This document shows positions 27,901 to 52,406 of a stretch of 64,000 nucleotides of DNA, piece by piece. The stretch comes from Marsupella aquatica (taxonomy: Eukaryota > Plantae > Marchantiophyta): positions 4,858,510 through 4,922,509 of the forward strand of contig OZ316892.1 in the NCBI GenBank assembly GCA_973895155.1, read 5' to 3'. The position numbers and the translations under genes are program-made. The stretch's first letter is position 1. The number at the start of each line of letters is the position of its first letter. The notes under the pieces are model-generated. The model did no database searches. It was not told the DNA's origin and saw only the letters and a list, made by a program, of their open reading frames with translations.

Positions 27901-28244
27901 AGTACAATTTCAGTGAACAATATTTAATTTGTGTGCTCTATGGTCTTCACAGTGGTTGCCTTTTTGAATGAACTTCTCTTTGACTCTTCTGAACATTTTT
28001 TCCAAGTCTGCCTGACACTAAACCCTGAACTGCTTGCTCTCTGTGCAGAGCACCCTTAAGCCAAAGCCAAGTTATTTTTGACATTGCTTGTACTCCGTGA
28101 GATCGAGGTGGGCAGGACATCTCCTGATTTGTACTAAGACCTCTTACGGTAAGTACACTATGTCCAAATACCATCTTTGTACTTGTCTGTTGCCCTTCTC
28201 CATACACTTCTTGTAATATTCAAGGTAATTGTGCAGATCCACGC

Positions 28245-28958
28245 ATGACATCGGGCATGGCACGAGCTGCTGCTGCCTGGCTGGATCCAAAGTTTGCCCA
28301 TAAAGAACACCTTCGCTTGGATCCCCCTTGTTGTTTTGAATGTGATGAGGGAGGTACTGTTTTGTTCTGCGATGGGCCTTGCAGTCGTCATTTCCATTAC
28401 TTAGTTCATGGCCAGCAAGCTCCTCAGGAGCCTGATGGCCATGGGCCTGAGTGCACACCCGTTGCCATTTCTAGAGGGCATGATTGGGCCAAGGAGTGGC
28501 TCTATGACCTCTGTCAGCAGAACCAAGGTCGTTGCTTTGCTTGTGGACTACTTGGCCGAACCGTAAAGCCCACTGCAGATGAGCCCCTTGTGGTCCAGTG
28601 TGCACAAGATGACTGCTCTTCTTTTTATCACGTGGGTTGTCTGCGGACCATACTGAGGGCAAGGGAGTTGCCTCTCCTGGGGTACGCACAAAACTCAGAT
28701 GCACATCCCGCTGCTCTGATATGCCCAAGGCATTATTGTGATGTTTGCAAGGAGTATCGGGATGGCATCTGGGAATTCATCCAGTGTCGTAGGTGCCCTC
28801 GTGCGTGGTGCAGGGATGAGGGACCAGAGGCAGACAAACACCTCAAGAGAGGGGTGAAGGGTAGAGAAACGTGGGATATTGGTCCATGGCGTATGGTGTA
28901 CTGCAATCGCCATGTCATTCCAGAGAGTTCTGATGTGCCACCTCATGATTTCAAATAG
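28245..28958 (+). CDS. Tandem PHD-finger protein/exon (EDM2/NSD-like arrangement) carried inside CACTA-2
   Basis: CFECDEGGTVLFCDGPCSRHFH ... CFACGLLG ... VVQCAQDDCSSFYHVGC ... ICPRHYCDVC ... IQCRRCPRAWC ... VYCNRH. A splice-acceptor-like TGTGCAG lies just upstream. Confidence 0.8.
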   Translation: MTSGMARAAAAWLDPKFAHKEHLRLDPPCCFECDEGGTVLFCDGPCSRHFHYLVHGQQAPQEPDGHGPECTPVAISRGHDWAKEWLYDLCQQNQGRCFACGLLGRTVKPTADEPLVVQCAQDDCSSFYHVGCLRTILRARELPLLGYAQNSDAHPAALICPRHYCDVCKEYRDGIWEFIQCRRCPRAWCRDEGPEADKHLKRGVKGRETWDIGPWRMVYCNRHVIPESSDVPPHDFK

Positions 28959-31331
28959 ATGATAAGCCTTAGTTCAGTTGTGTCGAAAACACTGCCTAGT
29001 ACAAAGTATATTGAACTTGTCATGGGTTAAGGACTTCTGGAGGATACTGGACACAAAATGGACTAAAGGGGTACAGTGGAGCACCAGAGTTTTTTGTTGG
29101 ATGAAAATGGAGTGAAGTGTCAAGTTGGATTCAATGGACTAAACTGAAATGGACTAAAGCAGGATGATTGTATGAAATGGACTAAACTGCCTGATTGTAT
29201 GAAGTGGACTAAATTGTCTCACTGTATGAAGTGGACTACACCTGTGGTTGAGACTGTTTGCCCTAGAGTAGAGCAACACTTAGTGGAGAAAGACCAGTAT
29301 CAATTCTGATTGTATGATGACTGTTACAGCTGTACTCAGCAATATATGAACAGCCTGAATGGAGATACATAACAAAAGAACTAAAACACTAAAAAACATC
29401 ACACTGACCTTAGAGGCAAGACCTAAAATCCACCCAAGGTCTTAAAAATGTTGTTGTCCCTTTGAGGGATCTGGCCATAAGAAGGCAAACTTTACATAAT
29501 GTCTCTCAAGTTTTGTAGTACTGCCTTTCTAAACCTACAGCCTTAAGAACTCCTTCAACCCTTCAACCTGGGTCGATCTCTGAACTTCGTCATTTTTGAT
29601 AATTTGAAGACTGAGTGACTGTATTTTATTCTGACTATTGCACAAAAACACAGTATGTGACATTATGTAGATTACATGAAATCCTTTGAGGCCCTTGCCC
29701 ATATGTATCCTGGTTTGTGTGGGGATGATGAAATGTTGTGATCTGAATCTATTCTAGTACCTGCCCAAAACAAACTGCCTTGATGAAGATGATCATTTCA
29801 ACAAATGAATTCAAAAGTCACAGAATGAAGGAGGGGATTGTTGGACATTATGATTAATGTTTGTTATTGTATTCACTGTTTTGAAGGGTCTGAGATTGCT
29901 GACTACTGTGAACACCCTTGCCCTAAATCTGGTTGAGGTAGGCCTCTATTTGGTCTTGTAAACTTTTGTCATTTTCATTTGTACAATTCAGGTCTCCTTC
30001 AAATACCCATTGTCACTTACAGTATGAATTGAGATTAGGTAACGTGTACCCAAGTAAATAATTTCTGATCAAGTTGCTAATATGTAATCTGTTTACCTTT
30101 TGTTGGCATGCATGTACTATTCTATTGGCAATGAAGGCTAAAGTGGGAGCTGCCTTTACCTCAGTTGGAGTACTGTGCCTCAAATGTATGTCTATTCTTC
30201 ACTTGTGCACACATTTGCTTCACATGACGGTCTAGAAGATGGTATGGAAGGGTTTTGGAGTTGTCTAGAACAAATTCATATGCTCTGCAAGATGTGACAG
30301 AAGAAAGACGTGCAATTGTGTTTTTGATTAGGTAGTGCTGCAATCATGGCTTCTTCTAGCCAGGCTGGGTCACATAACACTGCACATACAATAGAGGCAA
30401 ACAACCTGAGAAGATTACCTCTTTCCCATCCACGTCGAATACAGCGTCGTGATGATAACTTATGGGCTCGGGAACAGACAGCTTGCTCTGGTAGTGTTGA
30501 TCATAGAATGTATTGCTCTTGCATGGAATGCAAAGGGATTGTTAAGACTACTCGAAAGACCAGTCGACAACATCTTCTTAAATATGGCCGCTACCCTGCC
30601 TGTCGAGTGTGGGTAGGAGAGGGTGAAGACTCTTCTGATGAGGAGTGGAGATCCAATTACATTCGTAACTCTGGTCCAGAGGCACTAAGGGCAGGAATGT
30701 CTCGAGAGGCATTCCACTCAGGCCAGCCATCAATAGATGTTGAAGAGCAGGTCAGAGTTTTACTTCAGGAGACATTGGCAAGAGCTTCTGAAGAGTCTGA
30801 CGAATATGTGGATAATGATCCTCCTTTTGATATAGATTCAATGTTTCAAAATGATGAGAATGAGGCAGGTCCACCCTCTGCTGAGACCAGGGCTGAGGAC
30901 ACACCTGCAGCAGGGCATCCTATAAATCCTGTCCCTCTGCAAGGGTCTTTAGAAGAAGCCATGAGACCCTTATTTCCAGGCAGTAAGACTGATGTAGTTT
31001 CCTTCATGTTGTTGTTTTTAAACATCTGTCACAACAATAGGTTCTCAAACACGGGAGTGAATGCCATGCTGTCTTTGTTGACTGAGCATGGAATGCCAAC
31101 AGAGCACACTCTCCCTAAAAACCTATATGCTGCAAAACAATTACTAAGAAAATTGGGTTTAGACTATGAGAGAATCCCAGTCTGTGAGAATGGATGTATG
31201 TTGTTTAGAAATGAGACTGCAGAGTTGGACAATTGTTCCAAGTGTAATCAGCCAAAGATGAAGTTAGTGGGGAATTCTTTACAGCCTGCAAAGGTCTTGA
31301 GATATTTCCCTATAATCCCTCGATTGAAGAG

Positions 31332-34300
31332 TGTGATGCCTAGACAGGAATCACTCGGCCGGTTAAGTGGGTAAAGCAGGAAGGCACCCTAGGAACACCT
31401 TAGTATAGTGACAAAACAAGGAAAATATAAACAATTAGGGGCAACCATGGAACCCGGGCAGAGGCCGGAGGTAAGGCTGAGGGTGAAAACCCGATTAGGG
31501 TTAGGGCGCGTTAAGCATCGGCGGCTAGGAAGGATCAACGGGAAGAAGGACCGGCAGAGGAGAGGGGTAAGAAGCGCTTGCAGGAGATGGTGGCTCATTT
31601 GCGAGCACGAACTAGGCAGACGACTACGGGAGGCCAACTACTGTCAGCTGCTTAGGCAAGCACTCGGGGAGAGAGTAGATACCGACGATCAACCTAAGGA
31701 GGGTATGAGCAACGTCAATCAAGCGGCACATTTCTGGGGATGCCTGTTCGAACGGGCAACTGAGTACATCAAGACTTACGAGGACGAGGAGTCAGAAAGG
31801 GCAGCTCGAGAACGGCAGGAGCTCGCTCGATTGTGGGAGCTGCAGAAGACGGCTTTCTTAGGAGGCGAACTCATCAAGAACGAGTTCCTGTGGACGCCTA
31901 CTTCCAATCAACTCGACGATCTTCTGTTTTGCAAAGACAGCGTCGTCGGCATCTGAGAGGCCATCAAGAACTGCAACGACATACACTGGGAATTAAAGGG
32001 TAGCACGGAAAGGTGGACCCGGGCAACGGTGCTAGGAGAAACCTCCACGGCAACAGAGATGAAGAGGAAGGGAGCCGTCAACGATGAAGCCACCCCGGCA
32101 AAAAGAACGAGGTCGGCGGCACCAAAGAAGCCAGCCGAGCAGCAGAGCAGGAGGCAGGGAGAAGCCGAAGAGGAGGAGGTCGATCCCATCAAGGCCATTC
32201 CAACCAGGGATGACACCTGGAAGGGCTGGGCGGCAACCCTACCGGTGGAGGTGCAACTACATTTTGCATGGGAGGAGGATGCATGCTTTACGGCCATGCA
32301 GACCAAGAAGTACCAAGGCTTCATGGCCGGATCCGGCTTGGAGGCCTTTGTAAGATTACCATGGCTGAAGCCGGAGGTACCGGAGTCAGACCTATTAGAA
32401 TTCGTGGGGTCATGGGAACCCGAGACCAATTGCACGAGGATATATGGGAAGGATTTCTATCTTACTCCCAAGGTGATTGCCGAAGTGTTTGGCTTGCCGA
32501 TGGGCAATAAGACCAAAGTTGATACCAGGAAGACCTTGCCTGACAAGGAGTTCCGGTCGTTCCCCGGGCCATCAACGAAGAATGGCTTCTTCCGGAACAC
32601 CTGCACCAACCCGCACATAGGAGAGATGATCGACTTCTTGCGGGTGACCATGCATTGTAACTTGCCGAGGGCAGAGATCGGCAAGGCACAGGTCTATCTG
32701 GCAGAAAGGCCAGACCCAAGCCGGGACTACAACGGGTACCTCCTCAACCAATTGAAGAAGATCTTAAAGGAGGAGCAGCAGGTAATCGGCATGGGGAGCG
32801 TGTCGCGGCTTGGCTATCACATGCCGCTGTTGTGCCGGTATGCCAGAGGTCAGACTTTTGCCCCGGTACTTCCCCTGCAGGTAAGGGCACCCGAGGAAGC
32901 TCCAACGCCGAGGCCGTTGGCTGAGAAGCCTCAACCACCTGTTAGTCCTACGATCGAGCAGGTGTTTAGGCCCAGGAAGGAAGACTTGCCGATGCAGCAA
33001 CCAGGCATGCAGAGTCTGCTGAAACTACTGGAGAAAGAAAAGAGATCGGCATCGGCAAAAACAACGGCAACGGCAACAATGCAGGACACTACTACAGAGG
33101 TAGGCCTACACCGGCTCACAAGAGAAAACCCCTTTGCTGGAGACAAGGAGAGAATCAGGCCAGAATCCAAGCCAGGTGTTCGAATGTACGTGGGAACCTC
33201 AAGCTCCGAATCTGAGGCAGAATTGCCTGAAGCTCCTACCGAGGAAGAGGAGAGGGAGAAGCCGGAAATCCAAGAGGTAGAGGAGGCAGTGGAGGACTGC
33301 AGCCATGATAATTCCGGCTATGGGTCGGACCATCACGTTCCAGGAGTAAGGACCTGTGGCCGGTTTGTCCCCACACTTCCAAGGGTAGTGCGAGGGGACC
33401 CCAACCAGCAGAGTAGCCCTGAGTCTCCCCCACCAGATGTTGCTCCCCCGAGCTTCGACGGCATAAAACAGACGGTGCAGGAATTTCAGGAGCGAATCAA
33501 GCAGGAGGAAGAGGCCGCCCTGGCTAAGGAAAAGGATTTACCAGGAGGAGATTGGCCGGAGGACATCAGGCGGCTAGCCGAAAAAGGAAGCAAACCTCTA
33601 GCCACGATTGAAGAGATCCGCAGGACGGCTTGGGAGCAGAGGCCACGATGGGCGATGCCGATCACTTCTACTTACTCCACCTACGCTAAGAATAGAGCCA
33701 TGGAGTATGGTGAGATGTGTGGGGAACTTGCGCTCGGCATCTTTGGAGAGGAGTTGGAGGTAGGACCCTTTTTCCATAGGGAGCAGTTGGAGAAGCACCA
33801 ATTAGAAGAAGCGGTGGCTTTAGAGAGAAGCAAGAAGGACGAGGTCATTCGGCGGCTTAGGAGGATGGAAGCCGAGATTGAAGATCTAAGGGCGGCCAAG
33901 AAAGCCCAAGATGAACTGCGGATTAAACGACATGAGCTGAACATCATGCAGGGGCAGTTGGACGCCGCGCAGGCTGATAATCAGAATATCAAGGATAAAC
34001 TGACTCAGACGCAGGAAGAGTTGGCCGACACGATCAAAGAAAGGGAAAAGTGGAAGCAAGAGCTGAAGAATACAGAGGAGGCCCACATAACAGCCAACAG
34101 CCGGGCCATGGCGGAGACCCAAAGAAAGGAATGGGCGTTGAAAGGGGAGCTCGAGAAAATCCGCGGAGCCCTTGAGCAGAAGGAGGTCGAGTTAGGGAAA
34201 TCCTATCAAGGGATTATGGCGCTGCAGCAGGAGCTTGCGTCCCTGACGGCCAGCTTCAAGGCCGACCTAAGGGAGAAGGACGAGATGCTCGAACAGACTT

Positions 34301-35981
34301 ACGCCAAGATGAACCAGATGGAGTCTGTCATCATTGCAGAGCTCGACAAGGAGCTAAGAGCAACCCAGGAGGAGAAGGCTACCTTGAAGAAGGAATTGGA
34401 GGAAGCCCACAGGGAGCAGGAGGAGGCCAAAAACGAGCTGGAGGGGGCACGTAAGGACCTGGATGAAACCCAAGAGGAGTTGGAGGAAATCACGAGGAAG
34501 ATGGAGAACCTACAGCGGCGGGCCGACAACCAAACAGAGCGGCTGAAGAAACAAGCCGCAGTATTTAAATGCTTAGCTGCAGCAGGTCCATCTCCTGTTG
34601 GGACAAACCAGTTACCAGGGGTGGTAATTGCCGAAGGACAAGCCGCGCCACCTGCACCAGTGCCGGAAGTAAGTGGGAAGGGGAAGGGACCAGCTGCCGA
34701 GCCACCAACGAAGAAGAAGCGGAAACCTTCAGGGTCAAGGAGTAATACGACTTCACAGGCCGTGGTGATCAAGGAGGTAGACCCAGCACCGACCCCAGAC
34801 AGGGTCACGGCTAAGGATCCAACTACCCTAGGGGAAGGGGAAGCCGAAGCCGTGGGAGTGGCTGAAGCCGAAGCCGTGGGAGTGGCTGAGGCCAAAGCCG
34901 TGGGTATTGCCGAGGCCGGTGTCGAGGCTGAAGCCGAAAGTGGACCCAGTCAGGCCGATGGAGAGTTGACTCGGTCAAGGGCAGGTAATCTGTCAGTAGG
35001 CGGGCCAACGGCAGTGGCTGAGGAGGAAGTGTTGGGGGCGTCCATTGAGGATCCACCACCGGTGTCGTGACGGTGCAAGGGCGCCGTTCCTTTTAGGGAG
35101 GGCGGACGTGGAGGGAGGAGGCGTGAATGGGCAGGGCGGGCACGGATCTCCACGTTTAGGATTAGGATCAGAACCAGGAGCGGCCCTGACACTTAGCTTA
35201 GTGGGATTGCGGTCCCACTAGTAGGAGCAACACTTGTGCTCCTGCCTTGCTGTACATAGGTAGATTCGGGCAAGTAGATTACTGTTAAGTAGATTAGGCT
35301 TACGATGCAAAGAATGGCGGATCCACTACCAGGATAAGTACCTGGGCAGCGGGGAGCTCAGGGCCTCTTCTTTAGCAAGTTTTTAGTTTGCACCAGCCGG
35401 GCTGGGATCAAGTAGTACGAGAAGCTCTCGGTTAGTCATACAGTGACCCTTGTGTATATTCATGTTTCCTCATGCCTAAGAGCTGAATAGAGTTGGCCTC
35501 ACGGCTTAGTTCGCAGAACTTGTGTATGAGATGTACTGTTTGTATGGCAAGTGCATGGTATGACTCAGTCAGAATGAGTCATTTTGCTATTTGTGTGTCG
35601 CATTAACTTGTGTGAAGAGTGCCCACATCAACAGAAGGAAGGAAAGTAAGCAGGGGAGTGAGAGTTGGATGTGTCGAGCTGAGAGAGGTCTTAGCGGCTT
35701 AACCAAGCCTATTGGGGATCATTCCGGCGGCGGAATCCAAACATACCTAACAAGATGGAGGGGAAGACAAGGGAAGGCCTAGATTAGGTCGGCTACGTAT
35801 CTCATGACCCGATGAAGGATCTGTCCAGTATATGTGTGTAAAATGTTAATAGTAGTAGTAGAAGGTTAGCAGCGTCCCATGCCGCTAAGCCGCGGAAACG
35901 GCCTCGCCAAGCACGAAACCTGCGGGAATCGGCTTGAGCTGGGGGGTTTCTTGGGTTTAGGGAGCCATGGGACGCACCACA
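31332..35981 (+). mobile_element. Family A long copy (A, 4650 bp): giant solo-LTR-like unit
   Basis: Ends TGTGATGC...GCACCACA (7/8 inverted match). Perfect 5-bp TSD AAGAG (31327-31331 / 35982-35986). Removing it restores the TnpD frame (PRLKRLY). No internal direct repeats, gag or pol seen. Strand given is the ORF strand. Confidence 0.95.
31447..35070 (+). pseudogene. ~1207-codon accessory protein ORF (conserved globular domain, acidic linker, long coiled coil, NLS-like KKKRK) with one premature stop
   Basis: The 31408-31956 and 32029-35070 ORFs are in the same frame. The only stop is TGA at 31954, where copy B has CGA. Confidence 0.85.
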
Positions 35982-38867
35982 AAGAGATTGTATGCCACTA
36001 AGGGTACATCTAAGCTAATGACTTGGCATCATGAGAACAAGAGCAAGGACAACATGGTGCGACATCCAGCAGATTCAAAGGCATGGAAACATGTGGACAC
36101 AGAGATCGACCCTGCTTTTGCTGCTGAGCCAAGGAATGTGCGAATGGGATTGGCACTTGATGGGGTAAATCCATTTGGGAATAATTCTACTGCCTGGTCT
36201 ACATGGCCAATCCTGCTATTGAATTATAATATCCCTCCTTGGCTTTCCACAAAGAAGTTCTTTGTCATGCTGGCTCTTCTAATTCCAGGTCCTGTGTCTG
36301 TAAGCGAGGAACAATTTGATGTATACATGGCTCCACTTGTGGATGATCTTGAGACATTATGGTCAGAAGGAGTAGATTGTTTTGATGTTCTACCAAGGCT
36401 AGGATTGCAGCAACAGTTCAAGCTAAGGGCTTCAGTATTGTGGACAATCAATGATTATCCTGCATATGGATTAGTCTCTGGCCAACAACATGCAGGGTAC
36501 AAAGGATGTGTGGTTTGTGGGCCAAATTGTGTGGCACAAGGTTCAAAACAGTTGGGCAAGTTACTGTTTGCTGGCCATCGTCGCTGGTTACCACATAGGC
36601 ACTATTTTCGCAGAGAGGAAGTGGCAAAATACTTTAATGGTGAGGTAGAGGCACGAGCTGCACCATGTAGAGTGTCCAGCTCTGATAGGAAACGTTGGGG
36701 AGAAAAGACCGCTAAATATGTGGAGAAGAAACCAGGGAATGCGCTGGATGATGAAAACTCTCCAGTAAAGAAGAATGGAGTGAAGAGGGTTACTGGATTA
36801 TACAAGCTGCCATACTGGAGTGTAAGTATCTGGTTCCCCATACTGAATCCCTTAGTGTGTAATGTTAAGTACCAAAGAGTAATATTTCTGATTCTAACTT
36901 AGTTTGTATTGAACTGTGCATCCAATGCAGAAACTTCTCATCAACCATTGTTTGGATCCCATGCACTGTGAGAAGAATCTTGCACACAACATTGTGCACA
37001 CTATTTTGGGGACAAAGGATACTCCTTCTGTTCGAGAAGACATGAAAGTCATGGACGTGCGGGAACACCTGTGGCTGGTTCCAAATCCAGATCCAAAAAA
37101 AGATTCAAAGATCATGCCGCCAGCCCCATACTGCCTCAATAAGATAGAGAAGACTAAGTTCTTAGAGGTATTGTTGACCTTTAAAGGGCCCACTGGTTTC
37201 AGCAGTTCTTTGGCTAAATGTGTCACAGTTAAGAAGAAGTTATCAGGGCTGAAATCTCACGATTTCCATCACCTCATGCAACAAATCCTTCCATTGGCAA
37301 CAATGGGATTACTTGATGAAGGTGTTCGGTTGGCCATAGCCAGAGTGAGCAATGTGTGGCGTACCATCTGTGCCAAGGTTTGGGATCCCTCACAGTACAA
37401 CTCTGTGATGTTGGATGTTGCATTCACACTCTGCCTTATGGAAATTCATTTCCCACCAAGCTTCTTTGATGTCATGACCCATCTGTTGATTCATCTGGTT
37501 CAGGAACTAGACATCTGTGGTCCAGTGAACATTAGATGGATGTACCCAATAGAAAGATATCTAAAGACCTTGAAGGGTTATGTTCGAAACAAGGCACGTC
37601 CAGAGGCTTCTATGGCTGAAGGCTACCTTCTGGATGAATCTTTAGGATTCTTTTCTGAATACATGATCGATGTTAAGGGGACAGGAATGAGAACATGGGA
37701 CTTGGAGGAGAATCCTGGTGTTGCAGGCATTGTCTCAGAAGGAGCTGGAAAACAGATCATCTTGGAGTGGAATGATATGATAGCTATGCATCATTACATA
37801 CTGGAGAATGAAGAGCTGGTGGAACCATGGTATAGGTATGAGCATGGTTTATATTGTTAAGTTCTCTGTTGTTTATTATTAAACAGAATTGAGTTTTGAG
37901 CAAAAATTGTGTGGGCCTAGGAGCTGACTGTCATTCTTGCCATGCAGGGTTTATGATGATCAAAAGGAGGCAGTTACCAAGCACAGAGCAGATTTCCGAA
38001 AAGAATGGATGAAGAATCCAGGAAATCGGAGGAATCCTGTGCCTTATCCCTCTGATTTGGATGAGTTGCCTCCTTTTAGAGAATGGTTTGAAGTGACAAT
38101 TAGAAGGCATAATTTTGAGAATGAGTTTGAACGAATGGTGTTGGCAGCGTATAGTGTACCACCTAGTCTGAAGGCACTGCGGTACAGGGCCTGCAGAGCC
38201 TATGGGCACCATTGGAGGACCATTCCATCACTAGGTTTCTTGATTGATTGTGATTCATCTGGGTTCAAGACTTTTGATTCTGGGATGGCTTGTACATTCA
38301 CTGAGAAGCGGGTGATTAGGTCAGGGACAACAGTTGATGAATCTGTACAATATATGGGGATGTTGACAGACATCTTAGTGTTGAACTATGGGCCTCTGAT
38401 AAAGGAAGTGGTCCTTTTCAAAGGAAGGTGGGCAAACCCATCTTGGACTCCCAAAGCCACTGCAAGTATGAGATATGATGCGTCTGGATTGTGGCAAGTA
38501 AATTTTCAGAAGGAGCTGGGTGCTTCCAAGAAAATGGACTATGTATTGCCACGACAGATAGAATAGGTGTTTTTTTACCCAAATGATAAGGGGATTGCAT
38601 GGAGGACAATCCTCCACAAGGAATCCAGGTCTACAAGGGTACTGGGTGATTACATGGAAATTGATTTCCATGATACTATGGATGACAATGCTAAGTTTCA
38701 CATAGAGTTGGCAGAAGCCTGTACAACTAGACAAGAGCCTAGACCAAGTACTACAGACAAAGGAAAAAGAAAGTATAAAAGGAAATGAATGATTTGAAGA
38801 TACTGTACAGTCCGGTTTTATTTGGTTGGGAGTGGGATTATACTAACATGGCATGCCATGGTCTAGC

Positions 38868-41800
38868 AGTGAATGCAGCGAATACCTCCATATGAGGAGG
38901 AACGAAATAAGAAGGTAGCAGACAACAATAGAAAATTCAGGGAGATATTGGAGAAAATTTCAATTTCATGTGAGTATAATCTTGCATGTTGTTTTGAATG
39001 TGCAAAGATGTGTTAATATTACTCATCAGCAATATGAGTTGGTTTTTGGTACTTGTCATTCATTCATTGATATTCTCTGATGTAGACTGGGTGCAACACA
39101 GACCGTAGGGCACAAGAAGAAAACAAGTACACGTCGAACTCCTATAAGTGAGGTTACCACACAGAGGAGACAGAGCTCAAGACTATCAAGAATTGCCTCA
39201 GTGAGTATGGCAGAGTCTGGTGATGAGGGCTCTGAATCAGATTATGACACTGATGCTGAGTACAGTGAAGATGAGAAACCAGAAAGTTCATCCAAGGTGA
39301 GATTCCTATTACATTTCACCAACATTATAAGGAAACTATAGACATTGGTAGTGATTCTGTTTAATAACATTGGTTTTAACTTGATCTGGACAGGAACATC
39401 TGCAACCTCCATCTAAGAGCTTGGCAGATGCAAAAGAAACCCCTACAAAGATTGGACCTTCCATGAGTGGCATGGTGCAATGTTACAAAGACCCTGTGAC
39501 TGGCCAGCTATTTGAATGTAAGTAATTTCAAAGATTTTCAATGTATTTTTCAATGTTGATCTATATGAATGTTGGATTCATAACTCCAGTGGTTTGCATG
39601 TGTATAGTGGTGGTTCCATCAGCATCGATTGGGAAATCTGGACACTCTGCAGTAGTGACATCCAGTCAGGGTTCAGGTAAGTCAAATTCAATGAAGCGTC
39701 CTCCTATTATATTGTAATATTTCTTGTCCCTCATTTTGCAATAGTGGATGATCAATATTGGATGCTCATTGTGTATGTAGAGGGAAGAAAGATTGCAACT
39801 AAGCAACGCAGGGAATCTAGGCAAGCCAAAAAACAATTCCAGAGAACCGGTAGTGCAAGAAGGGCTGACAATAAGAAGGGAAAATTGATAACGGTAAGAT
39901 TTTCATTGCACATTTCACATTTGTGGCCTACAGTTTGTGTACTCAGAAGCAATTGGGTGTTTGTTTCATTTCCAATGTTGATGACTATCATTTATGGTGT
40001 TTTTTTCAGATTCATGACAATGATATTGATGATTCTCATCCTAATAAACCATATTGGATGGAGGAGCTACGTGCCAATGTCTTGAGGCTTTTTGATGTAT
40101 CAGAACCTGATTGGAACAAACAAGATCCAAACATAATTGCGGATGTGCAGAAATTGATGGAGGCAGATTGGGAGTATCCAGATAAGCAGTCAGTGTCTGA
40201 CAAGAAATTTATTAGTCACTGTCGGACATTATTGAAAAGAGAACGTCACAAACTAAATACTTATTGGAAGGATGTATGTAAACGTGATCGCTCCAAACCA
40301 GGACCTCAATATGTTGATCCGTTGAAATGGGCACGACTGGTGGATCATTTTGATAGTCCTGCTTTGCTTGCAAGGAGTGCTGTGATGAAAGCAAGGAGGG
40401 CAAAAGTGGTGAACAAAGAGCATTTTGGAAGAGGAGGGGCTGCTGGAGCAGAAAAAAGATTGGTAAGAATCTTCAGATGGTCCATCTCACTGCAGGTCTA
40501 GACTGTCATTTGAATTGAAGTGTTTATCTAGTATAGGAATAAACAATGACATGATGAGTTCTAATTAAATATTTCAATTGCTTTGAATGTGATTATGTGT
40601 TTCCAGAAAGCAAAAGGAATGACGAGCTCTGTTATATCAAAACTTGTGTCTAGTAGTCCAGTCCCCCCAGTGCAGATCAGTCCATCTATGGGCAGTGGTG
40701 AACATCGAGGCAGTAGTTTTGTTGGAATTGGATCTGCACATGGATCAGCGGTATGTAATGAAAACCTGTGTATATATTCAATTTTGATTATCAGTTATCC
40801 ATGATGTTCAAATTATCATTGATGATTGACATTGTATGGTGTCTTTGTGTATGTAGACTCCACTGTCCAGGGAAACTACAATTGAGGAACCAGCTTGATT
40901 ACTCAAGCTTGAACAGTCTGTGGAGAATTTAACCAAGCTTGAGTTCAAAGTGGACAATTTGACATCTATGATGACCTCTTTCATTGCACAAAATCAACAG
41001 AATCAGTTTCATATGCAATTATCAAATGCAATTGCTACTAAGGTGGTGGTTGAGCCTAAAGGTAGTAGCAGGAAACGTTCTCTTACTTTCTCAGGTGATG
41101 GTGATGGTAAGAACATACAAACTTATACTCTAAACATATTACATATGCAATAGTTTATTTTTCAATTTAGAATGAAGTTTTCGAAGCATTCATTGTTTGG
41201 TTTTGTGGTAGCTTCTTCAGGGAAAATCCTGTATCACAGCGAGAGAAATCAGATACTTTAACAAGGCAGAAGCCAAAGCCAAGTATGGGAGAAGCAAATT
41301 TGGGAGCACTGCAGGAACCTTGCGTTGTACAAAGCAGCATTGGTAATGGTGAAAGTGATGAGATTGCTGTCACAGATGAACAGATAGTGTCAAATGCAAT
41401 TCAGGAACAAGAGGCTACGCCACCTAGGCCTTCAAAGAGATTCAAGAAATCAACCCCTATCACTATCTCACCTAGTGAACGAGGACCAGTTCTCTCCCCA
41501 AATCCAGCAGCAAAGGTGAATTTGTTTTCAGTTGGCTTATGTTCTTAAATTGATAATATGCCCAAATCAGTACTACAAGACAGTATTTTATCCTAACAAT
41601 TTTGTGTGGCAGTTTTCAAAAGGAGATGCTGTAGAAGTACGAAGCGTTGTGGATCGCTCTACAGTTGTTGCTAGAGGTGAAGTGACAGGGTTACCAGGAG
41701 AGGATAAATTTCATTGTGTCATGATTGAGAGTCCTTGGGTGCGAGTATCAGTTAAGGCAGTGTATTGTGGTGATGCAACATTGCCAATGCCCAACAAAGA

Positions 41801-41876
41801 AGAGAAACAACTCTGCTTACGGAATGTGTTAGGAATGAATACATTGTGGAATGCTAGGTTTCTTCGGAAGTGTTGA
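38868..41876 (+). CDS. CACTA-2 TnpA-like multi-exon gene; exon structure approximate, integrity not verified
   Basis: YEEERNKKVADNNRKF, PQYVDPLKWARLVDHFDSP...SAVMKARRAKV...HFGRGG (Ptta/En/Spm-type), and C-terminal VVARGEV...VRVSVKAVYCGDATLPMP...LWNARFL. Several GT-AG introns. Confidence 0.75.
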
Positions 41877-42242
41877 ACATTTTCTCTGATCATGTAGAAT
41901 AGAGAATTTTTGAATATTTTGGTTACCATTGTTTCACTCATGCGAGTGAAAAATGTGTACTTTCTATCCCTTTATCATAAAGACTTATGTTTTTTCAATT
42001 GTTCTATACTCGAGCTTGTGAATGTTGGAATGTGAATTTCTGAATACAATGATGACTTCTGTTTTTTCAATTATTCTATATTAGAGCTTGTGAATGTTGG
42101 AGTGTGAATTTCTGAATACAATGATGATGCGCAAAGTGATGTATTTGTTTAGAGTTTTAAGTGGATTCATTGTATGTGATTTTGAATATAACTATGAGCT
42201 CTTCTTAGATACATCCCAAATGACATTACTTAAAAGCACCTT

Positions 42243-42600
42243 GTATGACACCCTCAATGACATCCTCAATGACACCCTATATGACACCCTGTATGACACC
42301 CTGTATGGCACCCTGTATGACACCCTCAATGACACCCTCAATGACACCCTATATGACACCATGTATGACACCTTCAATGACACCATGTATGACACCTTCA
42401 ATGACACCATATATGACACCCTCAATGACACCATGTATGACACCCTCAATGACACCCTATTGACACCCTCAATGACACCTTGTATGACACCCTCAATGAC
42501 ACCCTATATGACACCCTCAATGACACCTTGTATGACACCTTATATGACATTTTTAATGACACCATGTACGACACCTTCAATGACACACTAAATGACACCT
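42243..42600. repeat. 12-bp subterminal minisatellite (ATGACACC + 4 nt)n
   Basis: Repeats such as atgacaccctgt, atgacaccctca and atgacaccatgt near the right end of CACTA-2. Confidence 0.95.
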
Positions 42601-43190
42601 TAAATGATTTATTATTGTGTCATTTATGACATGTCTGAAATGACATATAATGACAACCGTGCGTAGTTGCCACATGTTGTAATATGATTTGTTTAAATAT
42701 GTGTCATTAAAGACATGCCTAAATGACTGACGGTCGTTCATTCAGTCATTTAGGACAACATGTCATTTCAGAAATATTGTGTCATTTAGGACTACCATAA
42801 ATGACTGGTGAGAGTTTTAGTCATTTGTCTTAATTGACTGTCCTAAAAGACGAGGCAGGTATGACAGAAAAGCTCTAGTCATATATTGGTACATATGACT
42901 TGTTTGTCAGTCCTCTTTCTAGTCATTAAGGACACTATTTTCCACTAGTGTGTGGAGCCAACGAGGTACTCACTGGCTTACTATCCCCCATGTTGAACCT
43001 TGCAATTACCTTCCTTGCATAACTATTTTGCGTCAACCATAGCTTGCCAGTCTCCAAGTCCCTAGTGATCTCCATACCCAAAATCCTCTTAGCTGGCCCT
43101 AAGTCTTCATCTTAAACTCTGCACTTAGTAATGCCTTAAGCTTAGCAATCTTAGACCTATCATTGGCCACAATAAGCATGTCATCCACAT

Positions 43191-46100
43191 TGTGATGCCT
43201 AGCCAAGAATCACTCAGCCAATTAAGTGGGTAAAGCAGGAATGCACCCTAGAAACACCTTAGTATAGGGACAAAACAAGGAAAATATAAACAATTAGGGG
43301 CGACCATGGAACCCGGGCCGAGGCCGGAGGTAAGGACGCTGGGGGTGAAAACTCGATTAGGGTTAGGGCGCGTTAAGCGTCGGCGGCTAGGAAGGATCAA
43401 CGGGAGGAAGGACCGGAAGAGGAGAGGGGTAAGGAGCGCTTGCAGGAGATGGTGGCTCATTTGCGAGCACGAACTAGGCAGACGACTACGGGAGGCCAAC
43501 TACTGTCAGCTGCTTAGGCAAGCACTCGGGGAGAGAGTAGATACCGACGATCGACCTAAGGAGGGTATGAGCAACGTCAATCAAGCGGCACATTTCTGGG
43601 GATGCCTGTTCGAACGGGCAACTGAGTACATCAAGACTTACGAGGACAAGAAATCAGAAAGGGTCGCTCGAGAACGGCAGGAGCTCGCTCGATTGTGGGA
43701 GCTGCAGAAGACGGCTTTCTTAAGAGGCAAACTCATCAATGCCGAGTTCTTGTGGACTCCTACTTCCAATCAGCTCGACGATCTTATGTTTTGTGAAGAC
43801 AGAATCATCAGCATTCGAGAGACCATCAAGAACTGCAACGACATACACTGGGAATTGAAGGGTAGCACGGAAAGGTGGACCCCGGCAACGGTGCTAGGAG
43901 AAACCTCCACGGCAGCAGAGATGAAGAGGAAGGGAGCCGTCAACGATGAAGCCACCCCGGCAAAAAGAATGAGGTTGGCGGCACCAAGGAAGCCAGCCGA
44001 GCAGCAGAGCAGGAGGTAGGGAGAAGCCGAAGAGGAGGAGGTCGATCCCATCAATGCCATTCCAACCAGGGATGACACCTGGAAAGGTTGGACGGCAACG
44101 CTACCGGTGGAGGTGCAACTACATTTTGCACAGGAGGAGGATGCATGCTTTACAGCCATGTAGACCAAGAAGTACCAAGGCTTCATGGCCGGATCTGGCT
44201 TAGAGGCCTTTTCAAGATTACCATGGCTGAAGCCGGAGGTGCCGGATTCAGACCTATTAGAATTCGTGGGGTCATGGGAACCCGAGACCAATTGCACGAG
44301 GATATATGGGAAGGATTTCTATCTTACTCCCAAGGTGATTGCCGAAGTGTTTGGCTTGCCGATAGGCAATAAGACCAAAGTTGATACCAGGAAGACCTTG
44401 CCTGACAAGGAGTTTCGGTCATTCCCCGGGCCATCAACGAAGAATGGCTTCTTCCGGAACACCTGCACCAACCCACACATAGGAGAGATGATCGACTTCT
44501 TGCGAGTGACCATGCACTGTAACTTGCCGAGGGCAGAGATCGGCAAGGCACAGGTCTATCTGGCAGAGAGGCCAGACCCAAGCTGGGACTACAACGGGTA
44601 CCTCCTCAACCAATTGAAGAAGATCTTAAAGGAGGAGCAGCAGGTAATTGGCATGGGGAGCGTGTCGCGGCTTGGCTATCACATGCCGCTGTTGTGCCGG
44701 TATGCCAGAGGTCAGACCTTTGCCCCAGTACTTCCCCTGTAGGTAAGGGCACCCGAGGAAGCTCCAGCACCGAGGCCGATAGCAGAGAAGCCTCAACCAC
44801 CTGTTAGCCCTACGATCGAGCAGGTGTTTAGGCCAAGGACGGAGGACTTGCCGATGCAGCAACCAGGCATGCAGAATCTGCTGAAACTACTGGAGAAAGA
44901 AAAGAGATCGGCATCGGCAACGACAACGGCAACGGCAACAATGCAGGACACTGCTCCAGAGGTAGGCCTACACCGGCTTACAAGGGAAAACCCCTTTACT
45001 GGAGACAAGGAGAGAATCAGGCCAGAATCCAAGCCGGGTGTTCGAATGTACGTGGGAGTCTCAAGCTCTGAATCTGAGGCAGAATTGCCTGAAGCTCCTA
45101 CGGACGAAGAGGAGAGGGAGAAGCCGGAAGTCCAAGAAGTAGAGGAGGCAGTGGAGGACTGCAGCCATGATAACTCCGGCTATGGGTTGGACCATCACGT
45201 TCCAGGAGTAAGGACCTGTGGCCGGTTTATCCCCACACTTCCAAGGGTAGTACGAGGGGACCCCAACCAGCAGAGTAGCCCTGAGTCTCCCCCACCAGAT
45301 GTTGCTCCCTCAAGCTTTGACGGCATAAAACAGACGGCGCAGGAATTTCAGGAGCGAATCAGGCAGGAAGAGGAGGCAGCCCTGGCTAGAGAAAAGGATT
45401 TGCCAGGAGGAGATTGGCCAGAGGACATCAAGCGGCTAGCCGAAAAAGGAAGCAAACCTCTAGCCACGATTGAAGAGATCCGCAAGACGGCTTGGGAACA
45501 AAGGCCGCGGTGGATGATGCCGATGACTTCTACTTCCTCCACCTATGCTAAAAATAGAGCCATGGAGTACGGGGAGATGTGTGGAGAACTGGCGCTCAGC
45601 ATATTTGGGGAGGAGTTGGAGCAGGGACCCTTTTTCCAGAGGGAGATGTTGGAGAAGCGCCAATTAGAAGAAGCAGTGGCCTTGGAAAGAAGCAAGAAGG
45701 ACGAGGTCATCCGTCGGCTTAGGGAAAGGGAAGCCGAAATCAAGGACCTGAGGGTGGCCAAGAAAGCCCAAGATGAGCTGCGGATTAAGCGGCATGAGCT
45801 AAATATCATGCAGGGCCAGTTGGATACCGCACAATCTGATAATCGGATGATTGAGAATCTACTAACGCGGACCCAAGCAGAGTTGGCCGATATGATCAAA
45901 GAGAGGGAGAAGTGGAAGCGAGAGCTGAGGAATGCAGAGGAGGCCCACAAAACAGCCAACAACCGGGCCATGGCGGAGACCCAAAGAAAGGAATGGGCAT
46001 TGAAGGGGGAGCTCAAGAAAATCCGCGGAGCCCTTGAGCAGAAGGAGGCCGAGTTAGGGAAATCCTATCAAGGGATTATGGCGCTGCAGCAGGAGCTTGC

Positions 46101-47876
46101 GTCCCTGATGGCCAGCTTCAAGGCTGACCTAAAGGAGAAGGACGAGATGCTCGATCAGACTTACGCCAAGATGAACCAAATGGAGTCTGTCATCATTGCA
46201 GAGCTCGACAAGGAGCTAAGAGCAACCCGGGAGGAGAGGGCTACCTTGAAGAAAGAACTGGAGGAAGCCCACAGGGAACGAGAGGAAGCCCAGAAGGAAC
46301 TAGAGGAGGCGCGCAAAGACCTGGACGAAGTGCAGGAGGAGTTGGAGGAAATCACGAGGAAGATGGAGAACCTACAGCGGCGGACCGACAACCAAACAGA
46401 GCAGCTGAAGAAACAAGCCGCAGTATTTAAGTGTTTGTCTTCATCAGGCCCAACTCCAATTGGGGCAACCAAGTTACCAGGAGTGGTACTGGCCGAAGAA
46501 CAAGCCGCGCCACCTGCACCAGTGACGGAAGTAAGTGGGAAGGGGAAGGGACCAGCTGCTGAACCAGAAAAGAAGAAGAAGCGGAAACCTTCAGGGTCAA
46601 GGAGTAATACGACTCCACTGGCCGTGGTGACCAAGGAGGTAGACCCAGCACCAACCTCCGGCATGAACACGGCAATAGATCCCGCTATCACCAAAGGTGG
46701 GGATGGCGCGGCCCAAGCCGAACTACTCAATAATGAGGCCGGTATCCCAGATCCGCCTCTTGAGCAGGCCGGGGAGATCATAGCCGAGGCTGAGGCTGTA
46801 GCCAAGAATGATTCCCGAGCCAACGCCGATGCCGATGGTAGACCCAGTCAGGCCGATGGAGAGTTGACTCAGTCAAGGGCAGGTAATCTGTCAGAGAACG
46901 AACCTACGACAGTGGCTGAGGAGGAAGCGTTGGGGGCGTCCATTGAGAATCCACCACCGGTGTTGTGATGGTGCAAGGGCGCCGTTCCTTTTAGGAAGGG
47001 CGGACGTGGAGGTAGGAGGCATGAGTGGGCAGGGCGGGCGCTGATCTCCAAGTTTAGGATTAGGATCAGGACCAGGAGGCAGCCCTAACACTTAGCTTAG
47101 TGGGATTGCGGTTCCACTGGCAGGAGCAACACTTGTGCTCCTGCCTCGCTGTACAGTTAGGTAGATTACAGGTAGGATAGATTAAGCTTACGCAACGAAG
47201 TTCTGGACAGATCCACTGCCAGGATAAATACCTGGGCAGCGGGGAGCTCAGGGCCTCTTCTTTAGCAAGTTTTTAGTTTGCACCAGCCGGGCTGGGATCA
47301 AGTAGTAAGAGAAGCTCTCGGTTAGTCATATCGTGACCTTGTGTATATTCATGTTTCCTCATGCCTAAGAACTGAATAGAGTTGGCCTCACGGCTTAGTT
47401 CGCAGAGCTTGTGTATGAGATGTACTGTTTGTATGGCAAGTGCATGGTATGACTCAGTCAGAAGGAGTCATTTTGCTATTTGTGTGTCGCATTAACTTGT
47501 GTGAAGAGTGCCCACATCAACCAGAAGGAAGGAAAGTAAGCAAGGGAGTGAGAGAGTTGGATGTGTCGAGCTGAGAGAGGTCTTAGCGGCTTAACCAAGC
47601 CTATTGGGGATCATTCCGGCGGCGGAATCCAAACATACCTAACAAGATGGAGGGGAAGACAAGGGAAGGCCTAGATTAGGTCGGCTACGTATCTCATGAC
47701 CCGATGAAGGATCTGTCCAGTATATGTGTGTAAAATGTTAATAGTAGTAGTAGAAGGAGGTTAGCAGCGTCCCATGCCGCTAAGCCGTGGAAACGGCCTT
47801 GCCAAGCGCGAAACCTGCGGGAATCGGCTTGAGCTGGGGGGTTTCTTGGGTTTAGGGAGCCATGGGACGCACCACA
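43191..47876 (+). mobile_element. Family A long copy (B, 4686 bp)
   Basis: Ends TGTGATGCCTAG...GACGCACCACA. Perfect TSD CACAT (43186-43190 / 47877-47881). Inserted in the copia RT YVDD codons; collinear with copy A. Confidence 0.95.
43306..46968 (+). pseudogene. ~1220-codon family A accessory ORF with three premature TAG stops and no frameshift
   Basis: ORF pieces starting 43306, 44185 and 44824 are all in one frame. Stops at 44017, 44161 and 44740 are CAG in copy A. Confidence 0.85.
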
Positions 47877-49265
47877 CACATAAAGTACTAAAAGATAACA
47901 TTCTTCATCGGTTTAAGATACACACAAAGGTCAAACACACGTACTCTTGTGAAAACCTTGTGCACAAATTCAATTATCAAACCGCTTATTCCACTGTCTT
48001 GGTTCCCCTTCTTCCAATATCAATGCATCACCCTCATCATCAGTAACAAAATCCTCCTCTTGCAATTGAGATGGATCAACCCACTGTCCATACCTTGATG
48101 GAGCGCGTATAGTGCAACCAGATGTTCTTCTAGCTGATGACTCTGGTTGATCTGTGTGTGCTGGTATAATCTGAAGCTCAGCAGCATCCACTTGTTGCTC
48201 ACCAGCATCAACAAACTCCTTTGGTTCTTCTGGTACATAAACCAACTCCATAATTGGAGCAACTCCTTCTCTCCGATCATGCATCTCATGACCAATCTCC
48301 CCCTCAACGAGATTCAGGATATGAGATTTTTCTTTGTCAGTACGGGAGACCTAAGTATTCTCCCCCTCCTTCAATAATCTAGATTCATTGAAAGAAATAT
48401 CCCTACTGACAATGAGCTTACAGGCAATAGGATTCAATAACCTATAGGCTTTTACACTTGGTCCTATTCTGTTTCAGTGTGAGAGTATATGCATCACTCC
48501 CAAAAACTACCAAGCCATGATAGTCTGTTTGTCGCTTATAGCGCATCTCAAACGGTGTTTGGAATTTGATAGCACTAGAAGGAGAAAGATTTACCAAGTA
48601 AGTTGCGATATTGACAGCTTCTGCCCAAAATTCTTATGGTAAACTTGATTGGCTCAACATACTCCGTGACCGCTTCAATAGTGTCTGATTGAACCTCTCA
48701 ACGACACCATTTTTCTACGGAGTATAAACTATAGTAAGATGACAAGTTGTCCCCTATTCTAAACAGTACTCTTCAAATTCCACTGAAGTGTACTCCCTGC
48801 CATTGTCTGACCTCAGACTCTTCACCCTTGTCTCCATATACTTGACCGTGTTTTCAGTCTGATTCTCCACTTGGGCCTTCCACTTCTTAAAAATGGACAA
48901 GATATCAGACTTATGCGTCATGAGGTCGTAACTCTAGACCTAAGAGTAAATCCTAACATTCTCCGGGTATCTGCCATGGCCTTATTGTAGATTGCAATGT
49001 TGGCATGCTCTGCTCCCTTCAGGTCTTGTATGCTCTGCTCTTGGCTTTGGTTTTCATTGAGCAATTTGGCCAACTGTCCTTGGGTCTGCGCGAGTTTATT
49101 CTTGATTAATTGGTCGTCAGCCTTAGCTGTATCCAGCTGCCTTTGCATGATGCTCAACTAATGATTTCTAACCCGCAGCTCATCTTGAGCTTGCTTGGCT
49201 GCCCTTAGGTCTCCCGTCTCGGCTTCCTTCTCTCTAAGCCACCGGATGACCTCTTCCTTCTTCAT

Positions 49266-50973
49266 TGTAATATAATCAATTCATTAGAAATGATAGAAAT
49301 TTTATAAATTTTGAACTTTTTCTAACTCAAAGATGCAGTCTAGTTACCTTTTGTAGCAATTTAGATCAATTGAACACTTAATTTACCTAGTTAGCATATT
49401 AGTATAGAAGAATAGATATTTGTATGGAAGCCAACAAAATCAATGCTATGCTTCATCAGAGGCTATTGCTTGTATTGGATAAGGATCAACAATATAAATC
49501 CTTGCTCTTTGCATGCTACCAAGAAGGAAGACTGGATGTCATTGGAGAAGCAATGCAGACTAGAAGATTCAAGAATTGGACTCCAAAACACTTCTTCAGT
49601 AAGAATGAGCTCTATATGCAATTATCAAAATCAACCTATCTTTGCTATTTTAGTTAAATAGTTATCACGGTCAGAAAAATCTTAAACTTTTTTAGGAGGT
49701 AGTAATCACGTAGTAGAATCATCCCTAAAAGTTTCAGCTCAAACTTACACGTGGCTTGAAGTTAAAATTAATTTAGTTTTGAGGTCTAAAAAAAGTATGA
49801 AACTTTGCAAGCATAGAGACTATATGTAGTAAAATGCTATGAAAAAGTGTCACATCATTCCAACTTTCAGTTTAGAAGTTATAATTCTGACAAAGTCACT
49901 ATGTATTAATTTTACCAAAAATACGGATGCTTTGCGAAGCGTCCGCCCCAAACATTGACGCTTTGTGAAGCGTCCACTACATTTTCGACACTTATAGTGA
50001 TGTCCGTTTTTAGCATTTTTCTATTTTTTCACTTTTCAAGGATGACGGTTTTTAAGTTTTATTCAAGACCCTTCAGATATGAAAGGGCATGTCCTTTTAG
50101 TATCTCAGTTTCCTTGGGTTCTTGCTAGCCTATATGAAGTAGAATTTGTGTCATTTTCAAGTGTGAAAAAATAAACTAAGTGCCTGTGGCATGTGCTGCA
50201 GCATTGGAATGACCTTTGCAAAGTAAAGTTTTTGTGTATTTTTGTATGGAACTTGCAAATGCAAAAGGAATTCTTCTCCCTTCCTTGGTCTGAATGATTG
50301 AGAGTTTAGATCATTGAAGTAAAATTATTTGTATGAAGTTGAATCTCAGAAGTATGAGCGAATAGATTCCTTAAGTGGTGACAACCCATCTTCTTGAGTT
50401 CTTGATGCATAGTTTTTGGCGTGACATTGCTTGTGCACGGGATGCAAAGATTGTTATAGACTCACCAGTTATTTATGACTTCTATTTGAGCATGATGGTG
50501 TTCTGTATTCGTGACACAAAGTATTGATTGGATGCCAAAGTGATTGATTACTAGTCTCCACTCAGTACCTTTGAAAGGAAAAGTTGAGACATGTTGACAA
50601 CATTTTAGTAATCATCCTAGTACAATAATTCTTTCCAGAAATATTCTTGCGGATATACCACCCAAATCACATCAAATGAAGTATTGATGAGAATCTACCT
50701 TAGTGTTTTCCAAACTCCCTCATCATACCTCAAGATTTCATTGTGTTTTATTAATTATTTCCATTTCATTATTTTATTTACAATGTTAAACAAACATTCA
50801 AATCTATGCCTTGCTGAGCAACCATAGTAAAAGGCTCAAACATGTGTTTTTGTTACCTTAGTCATTCATAAGTGTTAAATGATAGAAAATCATTCTTTAC
50901 TTGTTCTTCCATGGGATCGAATACCGAGTTTTGGGCATTAAATGTTGATTTATGTTCTTAGTGTGACACTACA
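49266..50973 (+). mobile_element. Family X short copy (X3, 1708 bp), solo-LTR-like
   Basis: TGTAATAT...GTGTGACACTACA with perfect TSD TTCAT (49261-49265 / 50974-50978). Confidence 0.93.
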
Positions 50974-52406
50974 TTCATCCTCTCCAAAGCCACTGCTTCC
51001 TCCAAATGGCTTTTATCCGACATCCCCCTTTCGGCCCCATCTCCAACTCTTTCCCAAAGATGCCGATGGCAAGTAATCAACACATATTCCCGTACTCTAT
51101 GGCTTGGCAACATGAGTATATGGAGCGGTTAGGCGACATCGACATCTCCCATTGAAAGTGGGCCTTGGATCAACTTGCTTTCCTGCAAGCCACTGGATGT
51201 CTTCTGGCCACCCTCCCCTTGGTAAGTCCTTATCCTTGTTTGGGGATTCTTCCGCCAGATCTCTGAGTTGCGCCTGCAACTCTTGAGCGACCTACTTCAT
51301 CTCATCACATTCCAAAGGAGGGACGTCTAGTGGGGGAGACTCAGGGCTTCTCTGCTGCTTCGGGTCCCCACAAACCACTCCCAAAAGTGTGGGGATGAAC
51401 CGGCTGAAGCTCCTGACCCCGGGTACGGGCCGATCCTCTTCATAGTCAAAGTCTTCATCATCATAGTCCTCCACGTACGGCTACCCGTCCAGCTTGGAGC
51501 TTGGGTTTCTCCTGGTCTTCTTCTTGACTGACCGTAAATGCGGCCTCCTGTTGGAAAGAGGCACGGGGGCCGGCTTTGGCTTCGACTCCCATACTTGCTT
51601 TTCCCTCTCTTCATTGGCACTGTTAATCTTAGGCTCTTGTTCCTTGAATTGGGTTCCAGCCTTAAGCCCCCCACGTACATCCGCACTCCTTGCTCCCGCT
51701 CTGGCCTTCTTCTTTTCGTGGCCCTGGCAAAGGGATCTTCCCTTGTTGGTCTTCTTGGGCCTGCCTCTTTAACAGTGCCCTATACCGGTTCTTGTACCGC
51801 AGCTGCAGGCCCTGTTGCTGGCTTCTCTTTCTGCAGCATCTATAGAATGTTCTGCACAACTAGTTGCTGTCTTGGCATGGGTGTTGGCCTTGGCATGAAG
51901 ATCTGATCGATTGTAGGGCTGCCGAGCGGTTTGGGCTCCCTTGCCACCGGCCTCTCTTTCGACTCCTGTTCTGGTGCCCTAGCCTACAACGGAAGTACTA
52001 GTGCAAAGGTCTGACTTTGGGCATATCGGCACAACAACGGCATGTGAAATCCAAGTCAAGACATGCTCCTCTGGCCTATCACTTATTGACATTCCTCCTT
52101 CAAGATCTTCTTCAATTGGGTGAGGAGGTACGCGTTGTAGTCCTGGCTTGGGTTTGGTCTCTCTACAAGATAGACCTATGCTTTGCCGATCTCCGACCTT
52201 GCCAAATTGCAATGCATGGTCACCCGCAGGAAATCAACAATTTCTCCTATGTACGGGTTGGTGCAGGTGTTTCAGAAAAAGCCATTCTTTCTTGATGGCC
52301 CAAAAAACGATCTGAACTCCTTATCCAATAAGTTCTTTCGGGAGTCCACCTTGGTCTTATATCCTATTGGCAAGCCAAATACCTCGGCAATCACCTTGGG
52401 AGTGAG

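Follow-up and report, generated by a model that had tools for sequence, protein, structure and literature searches.

The 64,000-nucleotide stretch of the liverwort Marsupella aquatica analyzed here (contig OZ316892.1, positions 4,858,510 to 4,922,509; hereafter the window, in whose coordinates all positions are given) carries two complete copies of a large, mostly coding repeat unit. Copy A (31332-35981, + strand; 4,650 bp) runs from TG to CA, is flanked by the duplication AAGAG (31327-31331 and 35982-35986) and lies in a CACTA transposase gene, of which the Pfam domain Transpos_assoc is found on the left side and Transposase_21 on the right. Copy B (43191-47876, + strand; 4,686 bp) has the duplication CACAT and interrupts a minus-strand pol remnant, which we take from its motifs to be of Copia type. 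Both copies start with TGTGATGC and end with GCACCACA, and blastn aligned A (1-4650) to 43191-47876 end to end at 91.1% identity. Since this match sets the unit ends independently, the two exact 5-bp duplications are not due to chance (~4^-10). The empty site for copy A is present in a contig of a public sequencing run (X2), where the left flank is joined to the sequence past the right duplication with a single AAGAG. Copies A and B are real multi-copy insertions with an integrase-type footprint. They do not form a pair of long terminal repeats (LTRs) of one element, as each carries a duplication of its own and the DNA that separates them contains CACTA and pol remnants. No direct repeat was found at the termini of the unit and no long one inside it, the two-copy repeat families spanning it being 27-31 nt long at 70-74% identity. 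An earlier note, made from the sequence alone, had claimed these ends and 5-bp target duplications, two independent insertions and the lack of an internal direct repeat, and all of this is upheld by the blastn alignment, by the separate duplications and host elements, by the empty site and by the repeat search.

One long open reading frame (ORF) fills most of the unit. In copy A it contains one stop (31954-31956) that is private to this copy, being absent from >99% of contig depth in runs X1 and X2 and from all depth in X5 and X6; copy B has three internal stops. All three indels in the frame between A and B are multiples of three (3, 3 and 33 nt). Between A and B, codons 1-1140 have a ratio of nonsynonymous to synonymous substitution rates (dN/dS) of 0.29, with regional values of 0.15 for residues 250-490 (the core domain), 0.23 for residues 490-780 and 0.20 for residues 780-1060; the gene is under purifying selection. 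For codons 1-86, all three pairs of copies compared lie at 0.90-1.01; over the 5' part of the frame the A-B pair gives 0.54-1.01, with too few changes to inform. Comparison with copy C, a short relative in the window, gave neutral values for codons 1-86 (0.90, 0.94) and constrained values for codons 87-275 (0.13-0.17), suggesting that the gene probably starts at 31705, a methionine at which one short homologue also starts. It is thus likely to comprise 1,121 codons (31705-35070, + strand) and to take up 3,366 of the 4,650 nt (72%), between 373 nt of upstream and 911 nt of downstream sequence; in copy B the whole gene occupies 43567-46968 (1,133 codons), its end part being 45946-46968 (+ strand). 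The earlier note had proposed one gene of ~1,200 codons filling ~3.6 of 4.65 kb: the single long frame stands, and its length is shortened by the 86 neutral codons. Five antisense frames of the unit were scanned and yielded one weak match, below the cutoff.

In the encoded protein, a charged linker connects the N-terminal domain to the core domain, after which come a proline-rich spacer, a predicted coiled coil of ~280 residues and a variable tail. The conserved N-terminal domain (31705-32046, + strand; residues 87-200 of the long frame) has an unassigned fold, four short, unnamed homologues and no Pfam or Atlas match; sought among 28 liverwort homologue targets, it gave a best E of 0.15, which is not significant. 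The coiled-coil region (33787-34626, + strand) has 1% proline, 40% charged residues and a dN/dS of 0.20. A Pfam search of the unit and its protein returned weak coiled-coil families only, with no match to reverse transcriptase, integrase or transposase, and a scan of the protein for six catalytic patterns matched a lone GPF. No integrase or transposase fold occurred among the structure matches of the core domain in the Protein Data Bank (PDB) and a viral fold library, so that Pfam, catalytic patterns and core fold alike gave no DDE/integrase enzyme of the kind expected in an autonomous DNA transposon, Ginger included. The absence of reverse transcriptase, integrase and DDE motifs reported in the earlier note is thereby borne out, and a transposase or integrase fold, which that note had named beforehand as counter-evidence, was looked for by the structure search of the core and not found.

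Searching 1.84 billion representative sequences gave 23 matches at E <= 0.001, the best of them 41% identical and unnamed. One, P0020 (bacterial Ig repeats), was judged spurious and removed ahead of the alignment. Unnamed proteins of the liverwort Calypogeia fissa made up three of the ten representative matches that were looked up, and two more came from a word-index search; the word-index protein searches gave 0, 0 and 3 matches, and PDB sequence searches 0 matches and 1 match at E 2.3. Alignment A1, used for folding the core (32194-32886, + strand), had 20 rows and left out the four N-terminal matches, P0010, P0011 and P0022. With this alignment, one of five models reached pLDDT 79 and pTM 0.78; the single-sequence model had pLDDT 31. 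The top PDB match of the core was VANC21 bound to its target DNA (9lnj_A; probability 0.95, TM 0.47), the next match having E 3.6, and in the viral fold library the best match was unnamed (E 0.048, TM 0.32). Atlas scores, which are leads only, were 0.92 for an unnamed cluster, 0.89 for Transposase_32 (PF20167) and 0.88 for ATHILA (PF03078). Literature statements here and below refer to the available portions of the cited papers: Transposase_32 and ATHILA are Ty3/gypsy accessory families (PMC6317226, PMC11728184), MAIN, a PMD protein, is a structural homologue of VANC, and the VANC21 coiled coil is predicted to oligomerise (PMC13547354), PMD-C, which resembles DUF1985, counteracts silencing by Polycomb (10.1101/2024.09.27.615353), and PMD-A clades occur on Gypsy elements (PMC5418596). 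On the basis of the modelled structure, the core probably adopts a VANC/PMD-type fold, and the protein as a whole looks like a PMD/VANC-type accessory factor.

The 5' non-coding part (31332-31704, + strand; 373 nt), in which the open frame is neutral, contains blocks conserved in copies A to D, the telomere-like motif GATTAGG and, at +95, a TATA-like word with no counterpart elsewhere on either strand of copy A. The 3' non-coding part (35071-35981, + strand; 911 nt) contains a T/TG-rich stretch resembling a 3' untranslated region (UTR) at ~35380-35680 and a single long hairpin (35864-35978, + strand) that stops 3 nt short of the terminus. This hairpin has a z score of -5.31 on the + strand versus -3.76 on the - strand, and the terminal hairpin (last 118 nt) is conserved in copy B (z -4.48). 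Loose ends of diverged family members carry changes in both hairpin arms that, judged by eye, look compatible with pairing. Rfam and tRNA scans gave no match. If the unit is an LTR, the sole TATA-like word, the TG-rich stretch past the stop and the stronger hairpin on the gene strand make us lean moderately towards one that reads in the direction of the gene; an antisense arrangement, as in Grande or Retand, stays open in view of pyrimidine-rich stretches on the opposite strand near the 3' end.

Near-identical unit sequence occurs in public runs X1-X14, which come from ten studies and bear nine organism labels plus an air metagenome; contamination, close relatives and interspecies transfer are all possible sources. 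All 30 bins of the unit were covered in four runs. Peak summed depth / 31, set against single contigs of depth ~10-60, suggests hundreds of unit copies in X3 and X4, a rough estimate since depth does not equal copy number. The unit has a sharp 3' end: at least 29 contigs in X3 and at least 41 in X4 leave the unit at 47876-47878 into mixed flanks (agreement 0.36-0.49). For X5, eight of 13 records were listed and the remaining five were recovered from depth bins with residuals <=0.2. Two recovered records, with a summed depth of ~142 versus 350 at the terminal word, continue at least 20 letters beyond the end; without these two the printed share of 0.29 is not recovered (0.294 with them vs 0.171), which indicates that they run past the unit end. 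About 40% of the end depth in X5 thus passes into at most two sequences, with unique flanks lost to low cover. This shared flank is as expected for an LTR-internal junction, and the same pattern would result if an insertion inside a host repeat had been amplified with it. In X6, one contig extends 206 letters beyond the 3' end and another 106 letters beyond the 5' end, to which the duplicated chimeric reads in that run leave little weight; across four runs, shared downstream sequence was inferred in one and weak in one. When the mixed majority lines of the shared flank were read by hand, a primer site and a pyrimidine run could not be told apart. Head-to-tail arrays were considered as the source of the shared flank, and no end-to-start joint was present among the 15 of 101 joints listed. 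Splicing or deletions as the source of the internal joints were ruled out, since 12 of the 15 coordinates that were checked fall on GATC, GANTC or CTNAG sites, indicating Hi-C ligation. Metagenome, viral and genome contig collections contained no locus of the unit.

Copies A and B combine TG...CA ends and a short inverted repeat with single occurrence, a private duplication within the 4-6-bp range and, for A, an existing empty site, as solo LTRs do, and we consider it quite probable that the unit is an LTR. LTRs of up to ~5 kb with 4-5-bp duplications are described for non-chromovirus Ty3/gypsy elements (PMC6317226). The explanation that we prefer, and to which we give a somewhat better than even chance, is that the unit is the solo LTR of a large Ty3/gypsy-type retrotransposon with a VANC/PMD-fold accessory gene inside its LTR. 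The full element would then have the structure LTR-internal-LTR, measure at least 15 kb and be mobilised by its own gag-pol, and recombination between its two LTRs would leave copies like A and B, each with the whole gene. Read in the direction of the gene, such an LTR would begin with a short promoter part, carry the gene in R/U5 and place the terminal hairpin beside the primer site; it might have arisen when a shifted priming site swallowed an accessory ORF. The protein would form oligomers, attach to DNA of the family and, acting in cis and in trans, prevent the host from silencing the family's transcription, with solo LTRs continuing to supply the protein. The earlier note had offered two options: an accessory gene inside the LTR that is left behind in solo LTRs, which gains indirect support from the shared flank in X5 and from a domain of the PMD/Athila/VANC kind, and a gag/pol-less unit moved in trans, which appears less likely. 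The VANC21 fold match and the selection on the gene support an anti-silencing role of the protein, which we rate as plausible but slightly short of even odds. That a plant retrotransposon transferred an anti-silencing gene of the VANC kind to its LTR, so that solo LTRs are complete promoter-gene-terminator cassettes that work against silencing, is a tentative proposal, and rather doubtful in its entirety.

A number of observations weigh against an LTR-borne anti-silencing gene. Paired LTRs, a primer site, a polypurine tract and gag-pol were not seen, and both complete copies in the window are single. The shared flank in X5 comes from one run with another organism label and with mixed flank letters, its majority line agrees with that of X6 at chance level (7/30 by eye), and the X6 contig of depth 21.7 may be a product of Hi-C or of duplication in the polymerase chain reaction. 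The match to VANC21 has E 0.047, a root-mean-square deviation of 6.2 and 11% identity, no structure match reached E 0.001, and the other four core models have pLDDT 47-56. The Pfam profiles PMD (PF10536), ATHILA and Transposase_32 did not match the protein, and the DUF1985 profile, tried at E up to 10 on the query and on 14 further sequences, gave 0 matches; with all profile tests failed, the protein is not a filed member of VANC, PMD, ATHILA or Transposase_32. None of the 14 rows of public runs containing the unit, from 10 studies, is recorded as RNA. CG transitions between A and B occur at 1.9-3.5 times the CHH rate, which suggests that these copies were not free of methylation. The unit contains no dense motif array of the VANDAL type and no non-coding tandem array, although an unseen internal region could hold arrays. 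GATTAGG is present four times in copy A, and 10 of its 14 matches in the window fall within family copies, all on the gene strand; as the motif was picked after the fact, it is a lead only.

The lack of a target array in the unit and the continued decay of its CG sites would equally fit an LTR-borne gene whose protein does another job, such as integration targeting, acting as a particle or RNA chaperone, or serving as a decoy for host proteins, and functions of Ty3/gypsy extra ORFs are given as unknown in the available parts of PMC7264820 and PMC6317226. We regard such a job as unlikely, because the only solved structure that the core matched is a DNA-bound anti-silencing factor and because CpG depletion in the unit is milder (0.63-0.72) than in neighbouring elements (0.23-0.54), a comparison confounded by age and base composition. 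An env-like membrane protein was ruled out, as the sequence has no hydrophobic segment (maximum 19-residue hydropathy 1.1). A different origin altogether would make the unit complete as it stands, a non-autonomous element with no LTR pair and its own helper gene, cut or copied by the integrase-like enzyme of another element (Ginger-like, or a borrowed retrotransposon integrase). Both complete copies being single with their own duplications, the mixed flanks in X3 and X4, the self-contained promoter-gene-3' UTR layout with its terminal hairpin, and the different 3' end of copy C, with its better inverted match to the 5' end, are what this origin would lead one to expect. Set against it are the passage of ~40% of the X5 end depth into at most two sequences, a terminal inverted repeat in A and B of just 8 bp including one mismatch, a core with no transposase fold, and nearest domain families, by the Atlas leads, that are retrotransposon accessory proteins, and we judge it improbable.

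The case for an ordinary, already catalogued large LTR of the Ogre/Tat/Athila type, with a known extra ORF lacking annotation, starts from the fact that large LTRs and PMD/Athila ORFs are common in that group (PMC6317226). Yet the extra ORFs are internal wherever the available parts of PMC7264820, PMC6317226 and PMC3485330 place them, the best homologue in the representative search is 41% identical and unnamed, and the literature yielded no plant LTR-borne gene, which leaves this the least credible of the explanations, with a very small chance. In the literature covered, no plant retrotransposon was found to have a gene inside its LTR and no bryophyte retroelement to carry a VANC-like gene; subscription papers, supplements and repeat databases lie beyond that coverage, and the tables of PMC6317226 could list such an element. 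The available portions of PMC13468544, PMC10508981, PMC12885004, PMC12844716 and PMC1560396 likewise describe no LTR-borne gene.

Large retrotransposon derivatives (LARDs) and terminal-repeat retrotransposons in miniature (TRIMs) are non-autonomous elements with two LTRs around an internal part. The present unit resembles them in having no gag-pol and differs in that it is coding and holds no internal repeat pair. Among retroviruses, human immunodeficiency virus nef and foamy-virus bel2 overlap the LTR, and sag of mouse mammary tumour virus, an animal retrovirus, is a much shorter gene for a membrane protein. Sag is nonetheless similar in being a protein gene inside an LTR, hence present at both ends and in LTR remnants (PMC11998498), whereas here a 3.4-kb gene makes up 72% of the unit and encodes a predicted DNA binder. 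The rice elements Retrosat2, RIRE3 and RIRE8 likewise have long LTRs (>3 kb), many solo LTRs and an extra ORF (ORF0), but ORF0 lies upstream of gag-pol in the element body and the available text does not describe the solo LTRs as coding (PMC3485330). The extra ORFs of Ogre, Tat and Athila elements are of the same broad domain kind by the Atlas lead, and these elements share large LTRs and 5-bp duplications (PMC6317226, PMC7264820, PMC5418596, PMC11728184); their ORFs, as far as these sources describe them, are internal, whereas here the gene is contained entirely within the TG...CA unit, with no Pfam match to PF10536, PF03078 or PF20167. VANC21 of the Arabidopsis MuDR element VANDAL21 (PDB 9lnj; PMC5735166, PMC13547354) is likewise an element-encoded non-catalytic protein with a coiled coil and a variable, repeat-rich tail, and its core fold is the one predicted here. 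In contrast to VANDAL/MuDR elements, the present carrier has TG...CA ends, 5-bp duplications and no MuDR transposase. The protein has ~1,120 residues and an extra N-terminal domain, and the unit lacks the dense arrays in which VANDAL target motifs occur (PMC5735166). The named relatives of the protein are from liverworts, whereas VANC is described as dicot-specific in the available sources.

Were the tentative proposal of an LTR-borne anti-silencing cassette true, the main route by which the host deletes retrotransposons would scatter the gene that keeps the family unsilenced, and the VANC/PMD fold as a transposon counter-defence would extend to retroelements and as far back as bryophyte-grade plants. 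It is usual to treat solo LTRs as non-coding remnants, and since annotation tools seek extra ORFs only between LTRs, coding LTRs would be missed or annotated as genes of the host. If a retroelement outside the eudicots encodes a VANC-fold protein, it becomes possible to test what extra ORFs of the PMD/Athila type do in Ty3/gypsy elements and whether sequence-specific anti-silencing exists in retrotransposons, and the finding bears on the origin of VANC and of MAIN/MAIL1. A 4.65-kb LTR that is 72% coding also raises the question of the mechanism of strand transfer and polyadenylation.

The window holds two further relatives of the unit, copies C and D, which were absent from the first reading of the sequence. 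Copy C (15857-17033, - strand; 1.18 kb) is 84% identical to the first 947 nt of A and has a different 3' end, which inversely matches the 5' end better than that of A and B does. Its unbroken frame of 233 codons from 16656 keeps the N-terminal domain without the core. Its duplication is ambiguous (5-8 bp), and it is flanked by an 11-nt direct repeat, yet the flanks do not join into one host element. A 15-nt piece near its 3' end matches DNA just past the stop codon of copy B (46990-47005). Copy D (48959-55378, - strand) is an old, decayed relative of 69-75% identity that lacks its 3' part and is split by two units of a second family, family B, at 49266-50973 and 52407-54164. These are each ~1.7 kb long, with TG...CA ends, 5-bp duplications (GTGAG and TTCAT) and no ORF of 150 amino acids inside; family-B units look like ordinary solo LTRs, and further pieces lie at 2757-4154, 10410-11404, 14714-15169 and 20066-20285. 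The CACTA element that copy A interrupts extends over ~22.6 kb including that copy (20372-42950) and contains the transposase, a 408-bp tandem array (8.6 copies), a 12/24-bp subterminal array and a PHD-finger frame (28128-28958; Pfam PHD_NSD, E 2.6e-9). Elsewhere in the window, a remnant of a long interspersed nuclear element (LINE) with reverse transcriptase and zf-RVT domains lies at 11397-14650 (+ strand), a host gene with a MoaC frame at 7194-7682 (- strand), and apparent intron-containing host genes, with a CpG ratio of 0.64, at ~57600-63400 (+ strand), towards the right end.

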